Shown: piece after piece, positions 40,001 through 46,000 of the stretch
How the letters are laid out: every line of letters begins with the position of its first letter
Numbering within the stretch: position 1 is the stretch's first letter
DNA from: Escherichia coli
GTDB taxonomy: Bacteria; Pseudomonadota; Gammaproteobacteria; Enterobacterales; Enterobacteriaceae
Strand: one strand, 5' to 3'
Assembly (NCBI RefSeq): GCF_051903065.1
Contig: NZ_CP178438.1
Length of the DNA stretch: 64,000 bases
Made by a program: the position numbers

Positions 40001-43000
40001 TGCACTAACGGCACCCGCACCAGTATAATCCCCACTGTTATCACTCGGGCTAATACCAGCGGCAGCATCGTTAGAGTTATCAAGCGGGGTACCGATTGCC
40101 AGGTTGCCATTACCATGAGCATCTTCATTACCATCGAAACGAATTGCGGCGGACTTAAAGGTTTCCGGGCATTGAGTCAGATCGATAGAAAAAGCCGTCG
40201 GGGCAGCCACATCATCGACGCCACTAAAGGCTGTACGGTTTACTTTGCCTAAGTCAACGACCTGATCTTTAGTTTCAGGTGTGACTTCGCAAGTACTGTC
40301 AATAATTTCACCACGGAAATGGACTGTTCCATCAGCCGCCTGTAGGTGACCTGCCATAAACACAGAAGTTAACGCTAATGCTCCTACAATCATATTTGGT
40401 TTCATAAATATAACTCCATTAATTTGATATTATTCCTGTGTATTATCCATTTATTAAATTTGGATAAACCCGATCGGTATTTGATCAGAAGCCAAATAGT
40501 ACTACCAATATACTTTGGCGCAAGTGGTTTTTATTTTATACATTTAGATAAATTAAATTGGGTGTTAAGCAAAACTAAATTTATATCGTTATGTGATTGC
40601 TTAAAAGAAGAGGGAATAATAAATGGATATAAATATTATTTTTATGATGAGGTGATTTTTTAATTATATCACACATCTCAAAGCAGACAATTTTTTCATA
40701 TTTACATAATCCACAACTATGAATTTGCGTAGAAAACAGTCTTATTTTTAGTAAACCACACATTCAAATTATATTTTTTGCCTATATTTGTGGAAAGACT
40801 ATATATTTACAGTGATAATTTATTATCACACATTGTTACATAGTTAAATAAAATTACATATTGATGATTGTTTTACAAGCGATTCTTGAATGAACAAAAC
40901 GTGCTATTCATTACAAAGTACGTCAATTATGGCAATTGTTTGTCAATGATTCGAGATATTTAATTACTACTACGGTTAAAACAAGTGTTCAACGGTGCCC
41001 CAAATAATAGCTGAAGTTAATTATATGGAATGAGGTTAGATTATTAATGCTGGTAAGTAAAAGGGCCGCCAAAAGGCAGCCCTTCTGTGGGATGACAAAA
41101 TAGTCCTAAAATAAACTACGCTACAAGCCATATTTTTTGGCTCTACTTTAAAAATAAATGACAAAATAGATCTAAAATAAATTTTAAGCTTGCCATAATC
41201 TCGCACCCAATAAGTGACAAAATAGATCTAAAATGATATCAGGACATGGTTAAACATCTGTTTTAAATCAACTTTTATTTGTTTAACTATTTAACCGACC
41301 CACAACCGAAGTTTCTCATAAACAAAATCGATAGGTAAACGCTCTTGCTCTAAACGAGTTGACCTATCCCCGGAATTAGTACCAATCCCGTGATGAGATT
41401 TTCCAGCTTATGCTGCCTGCTTTGCATACTCAACAGGCGACATGTAATTCAACGAACTGTGCGGACGAACATGATTGTAATGCTCGCGCCATAAATCTAT
41501 TTCGTATCTGGCCTCGTCCATCGTTCTAAACCAGTGTTGGTTCAGGCATTCGTTTCTGAACTTGCCATTCAAACTTTCAACAAATGCGTTTTGTGTTGGT
41601 TTACCTGGCTGAATAAAACCCAGAGTAACGCCGCTTTCTTTGCTCCAGAAGAACATCGCCTTACTTGTAAATTCAGTGCCATTGTCACAGATCACCTTAT
41701 TTGGTTTGCCGCGTTGCTCAATCAGCAAACTCAAGAATCTGGCGACTTGCCTGCCACTGATGGAAACCAAAACCAATTGGCCTACCATTTCACGCGAATA
41801 ATCATCCACCACATTTAAAACCCTAAAGCGCCTGCCATTGCTGAGTTGATCCGATACAAAGTCCATAGACCAACGTTGATTCACAGCTGTTGGCACTTCC
41901 ATAGGCTGTCGTGGCCGAGTCAGCTTTTTGCGTTTTTTCGTACGCACCTGCAAACCTTCTTCGGTATAAAGGCGATAGGTATGCTTACGGTTTTTAACCC
42001 AACCTTCGCCCCGAAGCAGACTATGCAACATCAGATAGCCATAACGCGGATATTGGGTTGCCAATGCTTTCAACCGCTGTCGTATGCTGTTATCTGCATT
42101 CGTTTTGGGCTGATACCGCAATGCCGTTCGGCTTAATCCCGCCAACTTGCAAGCCACCCGTTCACTCAGGCGAAAAGCTTCTATCAAATGCTGAGCAACA
42201 GGTTTCCTTGCCGCTGGCGTCACCACTTTTTTGACAGTACATCCTTCATTGCTTCGACTTCCAGCATCTTGTCGGCCAGCATTTTCTTAAGCTTGTTGTT
42301 CTCTGCCTCAAGCTCCTTCAATCGCTTGGCTTCGTTCACTTCTAGGCCTGCGTACTTACTGCGCCAGTTGTAGAAGGTCCCGACGGATATCGCCATCTCA
42401 CGGCATAAGTCCTCGACCTTCGAGCCTGCTTCATGCTGCTTGATGGCTTTGATGATTTGTTCTTCGGTGTAACGTTTTTTCATTTTGAGATCTCCATTGG
42501 TTCCATTTTATTGGAAATCTCATCAATGTCATGGTCTTAAATTGGGGGGATAGGTCACTCACCTGAGCATGAGTTACAGGGAGCAGAGTTTCATTTGTGG
42601 CTTAAAAACACTCCCACCTGCATAACGGCACCCGAATTTACCACCACGACCACTGGTTGATCACCACCCGTTGTGTTTTCACGGAACCACCATGTTCAGC
42701 AATCATCCAGTTACTTGATTGCCTGCTATGAGCGAAAAGCAGAGATTCAGCACCTCAACACAATCCGCATGCGAATGACCGCTTTTACCGCAAAACCGGA
42801 CATGAAGCCCGGTTTATTTAAAACGAAATTATCGGTCTATAGGGCTAATTGTCCCTGATGAATGTTGACCGATGACATGTGTATATATTTGAGTTGTCTT
42901 CAAATCCGTATGCCCTAACAGCTCTTGAACTGTACGAATGTCTGTTCCCGCTTTTAAAAGCTGCGTTGCGAAAGAGTGCCTGAATGTGTGTGCGGTAACG

Positions 43001-46000
43001 TGTTTCTGAACACCTGACCGTATAACAGCGCTCCTTAATTTCTTTGTTAGGGACGTCCAATGCAAGTGATGGCGGCAAACATATCCATCCACTGGATGCT
43101 TACACCTGACAGATGATGGGAATATAAATTGCCACTTAAAATCAGAAATTGCGTAAGGGTATTTTCGCGCGAGCCCTGGCGGGAGACTTGTTTTACCCTC
43201 ACCTTCGCAAAGATCCTTTTCATGAAGATCACGAACCTTTTCAATATGCAATTTAAGGGGTTCAACAAGCTTTTCAGGTAACATCGTGACTCGATCTTTA
43301 CCGCCTTTGCCACGAAATACATAGACATTCCTTGACTCAAAATCGATATCTTTAACTCTTAGCATTAATAGTTCTGCTTTCCTTAGACCACAACCATATA
43401 AAAGCGAAAACATCAGTTTATAGCTACCGGATAGCTGATTGATGATACTCATTGCTTCGTTATGAGATAAGACGGATGGAACCCGTTTAGGTGCGCGTGC
43501 TTTTATCGTATCAGGTAGTAAAGTAAGTTCTCTCTGAAGTATATGTTTATACATGAAGACGATAGCGCAAAGCGCCAAGTTTTGAGTAGACGCCGTAACT
43601 TGTCGGTTTACGGCTAAATATGTCAAAAAATTAGTTACCTCTTGTTCCCCCATGTTCTTAGGATGCTGTTTTTTGTTAAACAAAATGAAGCGTTTTATCC
43701 AAAGTAAATAGGTTTTTTCAGTCTGAATTGAGTAATGCTTGGTTCGCATAACCTGTCTGATGCTTTCAAGGAAAGGTGAACGAGTCATGTAAGCTCCTTT
43801 GTTGATTATCGAGTGTGTTACTGAGACTTCTCAGTAACACCTGATGATAAGGAGGCTAAATCAAGATAAGGCATTGATATTAATAATATTACCCCATTAT
43901 GGGGTGGAGACATTACTGAGAAGTCAGTAATGTCGTAAATTAAAAGTAAATTAAGTCCTTAACTAGCTTCTTAAGTTATTGATCTTCAGTAAACTCATAG
44001 GTATAAATTTGTTTTGCCTTTCGGATGTTACTGAGAGGTCTACATAATAACTGTTAACCTCTGAGGAAGAATTGTGAAACTATCACTAATGGTAGCTATA
44101 TCGAAGAATGGAGTTATCGGGAATGGCCCTGATATTCCATGGAGTGCCAAAGGTGAACAGCTCCTGTTTAAAGCTATTACCTATAACCAATGGCTGTTGG
44201 TTGGACGCAAGACTTTTGAATCAATGGGAGCATTACCCAACCGAAAGTATGCGGTCGTAACACGTTCAAGTTTTACATCTGACAATGAGAACGTATTGAT
44301 CTTTCCATCAATTAAAGATGCTTTAACCAACCTAAAGAAAATAACGGATCATGTCATTGTTTCAGGTGGTGGGGAGATATACAAAAGCCTGATCGATCAA
44401 GTAGATACACTACATATATCTACAATAGACATCGAGCCGGAAGGTGATGTTTACTTTCCTGAAATCCCCAGCAATTTTAGGCCAGTTTTTACCCAAGACT
44501 TCGCCTCTAACATAAATTATAGTTACCAAATCTGGCAAAAGGGTTAACAAGTGGCAGCAACGGATTCGCAAACCTGTCACGCCTTTTGTACCAAAAGCCG
44601 CGCCAGGTTTGCGATCCGCTGTGCCAGGCGTTAAATTGCACAAGGAAGTCATGCGTATAATCCTGCCCATTCTATTAATTATTTCAAGTTTGCCAGCTTC
44701 AGCAATTGTTGTTCGTCACGATGTTACTGACAAAAAATATAATGCTGACGCTACGGATTTTGCACCTTTGGCAACACTTTATGTTGATGGGGCTCATGGC
44801 TCATTAATTAAGCCAGATTGGATTGTAACTGCCGCTCACGCAACTTTCTGCATAAGTCCTGGCAGTTACCTCCGCTTAAATAATGGCTATCACAAAGTTG
44901 AAAGCGTTTTCGTTCATAAAGACTATCAACCCAGTAAAAGTCACGACATCGCTTTAATAAAATTAGTAAATCCAATAAATGATGTAAAACCGGCTAATCT
45001 TTACGAACAAACGAATGAGCTCGCAAAAATAACTTGGTTTATCGGTGTCGGCGGTACTGGAAATGGGCTGACCGGACAAATTGTCGATAACTATGAAAAT
45101 GGTGGGGTTTTACGAAAAGCTCAGAATCAAATCGAACAAGCAGAAGGGCCGCTATTAAAATTTAAATTTGATAGAGATGATGTAGCTTTGCCATTAGAGG
45201 GGGTTTCAGGTAGTGGTGATAGTGGCGGCCCGGCATATTCCACCATTGACGGGACGCATTACTTACTTGGTATTAGCTCAAGAGTTGAAGGTGGGGATAT
45301 CGGGGAATACGGTGTCATGGAAGTGTATTCTAGAGTCTCATTTTTTACGTCTTGGATTGAAAAAATCACTGCAGGTGAAGAAGCTTTGCAGCAGCAATTG
45401 GCATTTCCCAAATTGCAGCGCCTTCCTGCAGGACTCACCGAACAGATTTTACCCCAAGTCTGTGCTGTTATTAGCTTGAAACCAAATGCAGTTTAACAAG
45501 TTTCTTAATTTTGTTCTGGCAATAAACCAGAGCTTATTTTCAGTGAGGTCTTCACTGAATTGGCGCTACCATTTTAAATAGAACATAGGAACTTCTAAAT
45601 GAAATGCATATTTTTGATTTTACTGGTTATAGCCTTTTCAGCTAACGCAATAATCATCAGGCATGATACGTCAGACGAAGATTATCAAAAGTTAGCAAAA
45701 AGCGATAATTCTACTGTTACTTTCTATGGTGTCTATAAAGGCGAAGATATTGTTGCGGGAACCGGAAGTATCATCGCCGACAAATGGATTGTTACTGCTG
45801 CGCACGTTGCTAATTACTTAACTAAAGGTGGCAAAGTTCAATTTAAGGATGCTTTTTATACAATTGAAAAAATTGTAAAGCATCCACTTTGGAAAGATCA
45901 GCAACTACCTAATGATATAGCTCTTGTTAAATTATCTTCTGCTATTGAAAACGCGACAATTGCTAAGTTGAATGACTTACCAAACGAAGCTGGCAAAATT

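Follow-up and report, generated by a model that had tools for sequence, protein, structure and literature searches.

The 64,000-nt stretch of DNA analyzed here (hereafter the window; contig NZ_CP178438.1 of Escherichia coli assembly GCF_051903065.1) is a segment of the E. coli chromosome that runs from the tna/pst/lpf region to glmS and is matched by complete E. coli genomes at 99-100%. It contains an integron integrase gene, an adjoining attI region and an array of gene cassettes, all inside a Tn7-family transposon (Table 1). The initial annotation had framed this locus as the class 2 integron of Tn7 with an integrase gene that, unlike the usual intI2 pseudogene, has no internal stop. Our comparisons make it highly probable that the locus is a class 9 (SXT-type) integron with an intact gene for the integrase IntI9 (IntISXT), its own attI and five cassettes led by dfrA1, and that it forms the left-end cargo of a TnsABCDE-encoding Tn7-family transposon inserted at attTn7 in the E. 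coli chromosome. Loci used for comparison are cited by L numbers; those bearing the exact integrase protein come from SXT/R391, Tn7-like, and gamma-mobile-trio (GMT) contexts, and the limits of the insertion were defined against an empty E. coli site, L017.

The integrase gene is an uninterrupted open reading frame (ORF) for 319 amino acids on the minus strand, as initially annotated, with an AAGGAG ribosome-binding site 5 nt ahead of its ATG; the end coordinate of 44053 in that annotation coincides with the G of the attI crossover. With the NCBIfam model TIGR02249 "integron integrase" (cut-off 265), the protein reaches 420.8 bits, and it matches the VchIntIA structure 2a3v over its full length (E 2.9e-81; 44% identity). 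With the IntI1 equivalog model it stays below the cut-off (274 vs. 435), as expected for an integrase of another integron class. The tyrosine-recombinase motif HTFRHSFAT and the second motif quoted in the initial annotation are both present. Alignment with IntI1, IntI2, IntI3, and VchIntIA showed that all six residues of the catalytic RKHRHY set (R136, K161, H267, R270, H293, and Y302) are invariant, and so are the integron-specific residues W219, P232, H240, and H241, whose counterparts in VchIntIA hold the flipped-out bases of attC. The integron-specific insertion (I2 helix region) that carries W219, P232, and RH240H241 is present and gap-free relative to VchIntIA.

The gene is also under strong purifying selection. 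The ratio of non-synonymous to synonymous substitution rates (dN/dS) of intI9 is 0.022 against the homologue from Alishewanella, and a Rheinheimera copy that was retrieved by its attI alone differs by three changes, all of them synonymous. The copy in the V. cholerae SXT locus L016 (4439-5398) carries five amino-acid changes vs. three synonymous ones, and one of them, T268I, adjoins the catalytic residues H267 and R270; constraint may thus be relaxed in this V. cholerae lineage.

The exact 319-aa protein occurs in 576 blocks of the assembly collection. In L007, L009, L012, and L014 its gene lies between a 235-aa ORF and traF-traH-traG, which are followed by flhDC-like (setDC) and cI-like (setR) genes, a position known as variable region 3 of SXT/R391 conjugative elements. 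The copy at the same position in the V. cholerae SXT element is 98.4% identical to the window integrase. Furthermore, the published primer inti9-Sh95R (PMC6541609) finds a perfect match at 43582-43600. The integrase of the SXT integron has been named IntI9 (PMC9229058) and the integron itself class 9, In9-1 (PMC9058013), whereas a five-class scheme of mobile integrons lists the same integrase as class 4 or IntISXT (PMC3108266). Judged by these matches, the window integrase appears to be the already known IntI9/IntISXT; it is not a repaired IntI2. The UniRef name "IntIPac" was set aside, since in the literature it is just an automatic annotation label under which no element has been described.

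The transposon itself is clearly delimited. The match to the empty site ends at 41085 and restarts at 60696, and all five tns genes (tnsABCDE) are intact. Both termini read TGTGGGATG, in contrast to TGTGGGCGG in Tn7, but three spaced GACAAAATAGATCTAAAAT-type repeats at the left end and four packed ones at the right make up the layout of Tn7. The resemblance to Tn7 with its class 2 integron In2-4 (intI2 pseudogene, dfrA1-sat2-aadA1) extends to the TnsABCDE set, the 5-bp duplication, the attTn7 site downstream of glmS, and the left-end integron with the same orientation and dfrA1 as the first cassette. A canonical Tn7 occupies the same site in E. coli THO-010, and there intI2 has the stop at codon 179 that the initial annotation had named.

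Shared site, shared order (left end, intI, attI, dfrA1 ... tnsEDCBA, glmS) and shared first cassette, together with the fact that IntI2 is the nearest of the classical mobile classes, are what one would see if the integrase were the IntI2 of Tn7 with its codon-179 stop reverted, i.e., a functional class 2 integron. This is hardly conceivable, and the alignments already refute it. Identity is 53.6% to IntI2, 45% to IntI3, and 42% to IntI1, so that the initial impression of only moderate likeness to IntI2 was a correct hint and the gene is not an intI2 with a misread stop. The exact protein is also present in SXT/R391 elements. Outside the common dfrA1 cassette, attI2 could not be aligned with the attI of the window; megablast extended class 2 matches slightly beyond dfrA1 on its upstream side, but this was judged to be chance, and relatedness to attI2 was rejected. 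Identity to the Tn7 proteins is 56% for TnsA, 63% for TnsB, 73% for TnsC, 48% for TnsD, and 46% for TnsE, and megablast found no match to the Tn7 backbone. The class 2 frame thus had to be given up on the IntI2 identity, the missing codon-179 stop and the unrelated attI2, and Tn7 itself was ruled out as the vehicle by the 46-73% Tns identity and the different termini. Tn6230 was rejected as a name for the element because it denotes a tnsABCD sil-cop element with different ends.

Table 1. Features of the integron, its transposon and the flanking target site (window coordinates).
Feature	Position	Strand	Basis
Tn7-family transposon, 19,610 bp, at attTn7 downstream of glmS	41086-60695		empty-site comparison, termini
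5-bp target-site duplication CCTTC, left copy	41081-41085		single CCTTC in empty site L017
Target-site duplication CCTTC, right copy; then glmS terminator region and glmS (60720-62549, minus)	60696-60700		empty-site comparison
IS3-family insertion sequence, orfA/orfB with frameshift	41360-42557	-	inverted repeats TGACCTATCCCC.../...GGGGGGATAGGTCA
Left arm of imperfect inverted repeat, three phased CACCAC motifs	42618-42724		inverted similarity to 52357-52468
intI9 (IntISXT), intact 319-aa integron integrase	42829-43788	-	ORF, family score, structure match, residues
attI9 region with divergent promoter space	43789-44053	+	conserved in 7 contexts; crossover G44053|T44054
Palindrome GTTACTGAGAcTTCTCAGTAAC, overlapping weak intI promoter-like site	43817-43838		sequence
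Second palindrome CATTACTGAGAAG(TC)TCAGTAATG, 2-bp (TC) deletion	43912-43933		seven-context alignment
GTTACTGAGA, third copy, candidate direct repeat for integrase binding, 26 bp ahead of crossover	44027-44036	+	analogy
Cassette 1: dfrA1 (coding sequence 44074-44547), 95-nt attC 44542-44636	44054-44630	+	NCBIfam DfrA1-like
Cassette 2: secreted trypsin-like serine protease (coding sequence 44651-45496)	44631-45573	+	Pfam Trypsin, RefSeq name
Cassette 3: second S1-family peptidase (coding sequence 45599-46390), attC 46400-46498	45574-46492	+	Pfam Trypsin
Cassette 4: ORF-less, attC 51746-51832, split by Tn3-family transposon	46493-51826	+	attC fold
Tn3-family transposon, intact: blaTEM-1 (46662-47522), resolvase, tnpA	46515-51464		38-bp terminal repeats, RefSeq names
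Cassette 5: 87-aa ORF (51853-52116), 114-nt attC 52187-52300	51827-52294	+	attC fold; gene call in L015
62-bp conserved array-closing segment, TTCTGCTAACACC...GGCACA	52295-52356	+	present in every context
Right arm of imperfect inverted repeat, three 23-bp-phased GTGGTG...TTGCAA units	52357-52468		sequence comparison
tnsE (52859-54466), tnsD (54475-55992), tnsC (55997-57661), tnsB (57664-59751), tnsA (59735-60562)	52859-60562	-	ORFs, Pfam, RefSeq

Upstream of intI, 265 bases are conserved across seven contexts. The sequences part directly after GTTA, and five different first cassettes are joined at G|TT (44053/44054), with the continuations GTTAACC (in front of two different dfr cassettes), GTTAGGC, GTTAAGT, and GTTATGC; in the window, the crossover reads G|TTAACC. 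In agreement with the attI-like region with repeated motifs proposed initially, TTACTGAGA occurs four times within 43818-44036, whereas 0.32 copies would be expected in the whole 64 kb. These repeats may be integrase-binding or regulatory sites, and by analogy the GTTACTGAGA copy closest to the crossover is a candidate integrase-binding direct repeat like DR1 of attI1. The TC deletion in the second palindrome is specific to the Tn7-like/dfrA1 lineage, while the other six contexts keep the full 11-2-11 TTACTGAGA palindrome.

No LexA site (CTGT-N8-ACAG, up to one mismatch) was found in the attI9 region, and its palindromes are spaced CTG-N8-CAG, unlike a LexA box. LexA control of intI9 was accordingly rejected, in agreement with the report that the SXT integrase is free of LexA control, i.e., that this control was lost (PMC3108266). 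The window integrase differs in this respect from VchIntIA (IntI4) of Vibrio cholerae, which belongs to the same fold family and has the same catalytic and extrahelical-base-binding residues but serves a sedentary, LexA-regulated chromosomal integron, whereas the window integrase is mobile. A promoter scan gave fewer matches than shuffled sequence and none that was convincing; the promoter-like site for intI at 43834-43805 on the minus strand is not above chance. The dfrA1 gene is presumably expressed from a promoter in the attI region, for which TTGATC-17-TATAAA at 43979-44007 is a candidate.

The dfrA1 product scores 305 bits with the NCBIfam DfrA1-like model (cut-off 250). Because the output of a simple attC scanner was noisy in other loci, we report here only those attC sites of the window that were examined by folding as well. 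Four of the five attC sites form attC hairpins on the bottom strand: the fold of the dfrA1 site has -36.3 kcal/mol (z -9.75) and that of cassette 5 -32.1 kcal/mol (z -8.5), and in the site of cassette 3 the R boxes pair and the L stem contains bulged bases. The site between the two protease cassettes (45491-45579) is degenerate. It keeps the R'' box GTTTAAC, but its R' box reads TTTTAAAT, the right-hand GTT is now TTT, and no attC-type hairpin forms on folding; as a result, both protease genes have probably become inseparable and would now move only as one unit. Cassette 4 is uninterrupted in L013, which is the same element without the Tn3 copy. Every array ends in a different attC, which meets a common 62-bp segment at G|TTCTGC, and the variable part between both fixed junctions measures 1.1-3.4 kb. 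The 62-bp segment is 95% kept in the Alishewanella integron L018 (1389-1449), the intI of which is 81% identical at the nucleotide level, and this suggests that the segment is conserved for a reason.

Compared with the class 9 integron of SXT/R391 elements (hotspot 3; e.g., In9-1 of ICEPalBan1), the window integron has the identical integrase protein, the same attI, the same 62-bp closing segment, and a dfrA1 cassette that is 100% identical to that of the SXT arrays L012 and L014. The SXT/R391 version, however, sits on an integrative and conjugative element (ICE) at prfC and not on a Tn7-family transposon at attTn7, its remaining cassettes differ from the two S1 peptidases, the ORF-less cassette and the 87-aa ORF of the window, it lacks the ~100-bp inverted-repeat arms that bracket the window platform, and the 2-bp palindrome deletion is found in the window version.

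In other genomes, the same integrase gene and attI carry many different arrays, some of which are nested. The array of L014 consists of a 458-bp cassette followed by the array of L012 (1110/1110 identical), and that of L016 of an L012-like array, one more cassette and then the array of L019 (99.8%). L010, a sister Tn7-like transposon with 99.1% backbone identity, has a wholly different two-cassette array between the same junctions. Integron integrases produce single-cassette insertions exactly at the G|TT of attI, and attI recognition is largely class-specific, as known for IntI1, IntI2, IntI3, and VchIntIA; insertions at attI9 therefore point to IntI9. As far as sequence can tell, the array pattern looks strongly like the footprint of integrase-driven cassette insertion, and an active integrase is the best explanation of the array diversity across copies. 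IntI9 would catalyze these insertions by attI x attC recombination on a folded bottom-strand attC, as IntI1 and VchIntIA do, and the copy in the window may still be expressed and active. The initial proposal that a functional integrase accounts for the non-canonical array gains indirect support from the nested arrays at G|TT in other copies, but the array is unchanged among the copies seen of the window's own lineage.

Several observations weigh against a class 9 integron with an active integrase. The searchable literature yielded no experiment on IntI9 recombination, and, with neither a LexA box nor a convincing promoter in the intI-attI spacer, expression of intI9 is only predicted. All Tn7-like/dfrA1 copies seen (seven E. 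coli genomes, Proteus, L006, L008, L013, and L015) have one and the same array, so that nothing points to shuffling after the arrival of dfrA1. Moreover, this lineage has both the 2-bp deletion in the attI palindrome and the degenerate attC between cassettes 2 and 3. The IntI9 label is based on the SXT/R391 context, the V. cholerae copy and the primer match. Finally, some array differences between vehicles could stem from homologous recombination at the conserved ends, an exchange that does occur: the hybrid L020 is of GMT type at its left flank and of SXT type at its right flank, and in the hybrid L010 the left junction is of SXT type and the right flank Tn7-like.

The constant array, the lineage-specific deletion in the attI region, the degenerate attC, and the lack of a LexA box or strong promoter would also fit an intact gene that is a silent passenger, with the integrase unexpressed or attI impaired and the array as static as that of Tn7; later changes in these copies came through Tn3 and IS26 insertions and not through cassettes. 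We consider this rather unlikely. The coding sequence is identical to copies that adjoin recently changed arrays, L010 has a different array at the same G|TT junctions despite its closely similar backbone, and among the copies only synonymous changes were seen. We dropped the last pattern as evidence of selection, since the exact-protein copies had been retrieved by exact protein match.

It is more doubtful still that the diversity of arrays arose independently of IntI9, either by homologous recombination between the intI-attI block and the 3' segment, both conserved, or by another integrase acting in trans. L020 and L010 do show exchange inside the platform, and class 1 or chromosomal integrons are present in many of the hosts as well. 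Yet the nested arrays differ by single cassettes placed exactly at the attI G|TT, which is not a product of homologous exchange, and both the general class specificity of attI recognition and the strong purifying selection on intI favor IntI9, so that we regard this origin as improbable.

The textbook integron of Tn7 is frozen by its dead integrase. Here, a related transposon at the same safe chromosomal site bears another integron whose integrase looks fully competent, and the cassette arrays of the class 9 platform are clearly turning over in nature. Enterobacterales thereby have a non-class-1 integron that is probably still able to capture cassettes. It already holds dfrA1, has picked up blaTEM-1, and would be missed by polymerase chain reaction (PCR) screens for intI1, intI2, and intI3; via TnsE, its transposon can probably enter conjugative plasmids as well. 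Current understanding is not overturned, because the integrase was already recognized in the work on SXT and the integron class is likewise known. We found nothing specific in the literature on a Tn7-like element with a class 9 integron or on strains that carry one; as far as the searchable literature shows, the Tn7-family vehicle at attTn7 appears to be new and a class 9 integron on it undescribed in Enterobacterales.

The Tn7-like element is rare in E. coli, being present in 7 of 5,426 complete genomes, and it lies at attTn7 in all four that were checked. It was also found in one Proteus mirabilis chromosome and in further genomes. Positions 30000-54000 of the window have a complete match in two Ecuadorian E. 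coli isolates, except for an extra IS26-bounded insertion of their own; in these two genomes, the same Tn3 copy is split further by an IS26-bounded sul3/qacL/aadA1/estX region.

The closest full-length relatives of the integrase (91-92%) come from Alishewanella and Rheinheimera, including Rheinheimera sp. UJ51, and more distant ones (73-90%) from Alteromonadales and metagenomes. Among 100,044 species-representative genomes, an exact 31-mer of attI is present only in Alishewanella jeotgali, Rheinheimera sp. UBA8519, and R. soli. The 62-bp closing segment is shared with the chromosomal integron of Alishewanella HL-SH06, whereas the arrays of these chromosomal integrons consist of other, mostly unannotated cassettes and do not include dfrA1. 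Their bearers are likely the reservoir of the class 9 integron, although they may instead be further recipients. In Alishewanella jeotgali (L023, 2663-4613), intI is interrupted by an insertion of ~1.4 kb, on either side of which only the 3' 300 bp of the gene and its 5' end with attI are left.

The nearest TnsE relatives of the window transposon come from metagenomes, Shewanella xiamenensis, and V. cholerae. Three of them that we inspected (90, 75, and 71%) have defense or metabolic cargo and no integron, and Tn7 and the window element therefore acquired their integrons independently. Co-divergence of Tn7/In2 and the window transposon with its integron from an integron-bearing ancestor was ruled out for this reason and also because the integron blocks of unrelated vehicles share 97-100% identity. 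The element of Shewanella xiamenensis (L027, 1-21608) is a related Tn7-like element in which additional genes separate tnsC from tnsD and behind which another tnsA-tnsB pair lies; L027 thus holds two tandem Tn7-like elements at one site, with defense-type cargo.

GMT islands are a third kind of vehicle for this one integron, so that a single platform moves between three kinds of mobile element. In L011 (13776-18567), L020, and L022, the same intI9 platform forms the end cargo of such an island, in which GmtX, GmtY, and GmtZ each exceed the curated cut-off for their family; the platform adjoins a RecD2-like helicase, and the island lies between prs and rplY. In the Tn7-like and GMT contexts, imperfect inverted repeats of ~95 bp bracket the integron, whereas SXT copies have no arms. 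The left arm is ~87% common to the window and the GMT copies L011, L020, and L022. When the two arms were aligned with each other, L011 reached a score of 51, which was attained by 0 of 1000 shuffles, and the window a score of 33, attained by 39 of 1000; the likeness of the arms is thus significant in L011 and weak in the window.

Both arms contain CACCAC/GTGGTG motifs, three per arm and phased by 23 bp, and transposase-binding ends are laid out in this way. This raises the tentative idea, which we consider distinctly unlikely as it stands, that the class 9 platform is a small non-autonomous mobile unit whose arms serve as ends used in trans, similar to integron mobilization units flanked by miniature inverted-repeat transposable elements (MITEs). 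If true, it would explain why an SXT/R391 ICE, a Tn7-like transposon and a GMT island, three vehicles unrelated to each other, all bear one integron. Alternatively, the arms may simply be ancestral flanking DNA rather than transposon-like ends.

The IS3-family element and the Tn3-type blaTEM-1 transposon are later insertions. The latter is flanked by a TTTTA duplication (46510-14 and 51465-69). RefSeq labels a sequence identical to the IS3-family element "IS3 family transposase, programmed frameshift"; no clear target duplication was seen at 41360-42557, and the element may have deleted adjacent DNA. At the corresponding place, the sister transposon L010 has other DNA that includes umuDC and another integrase.

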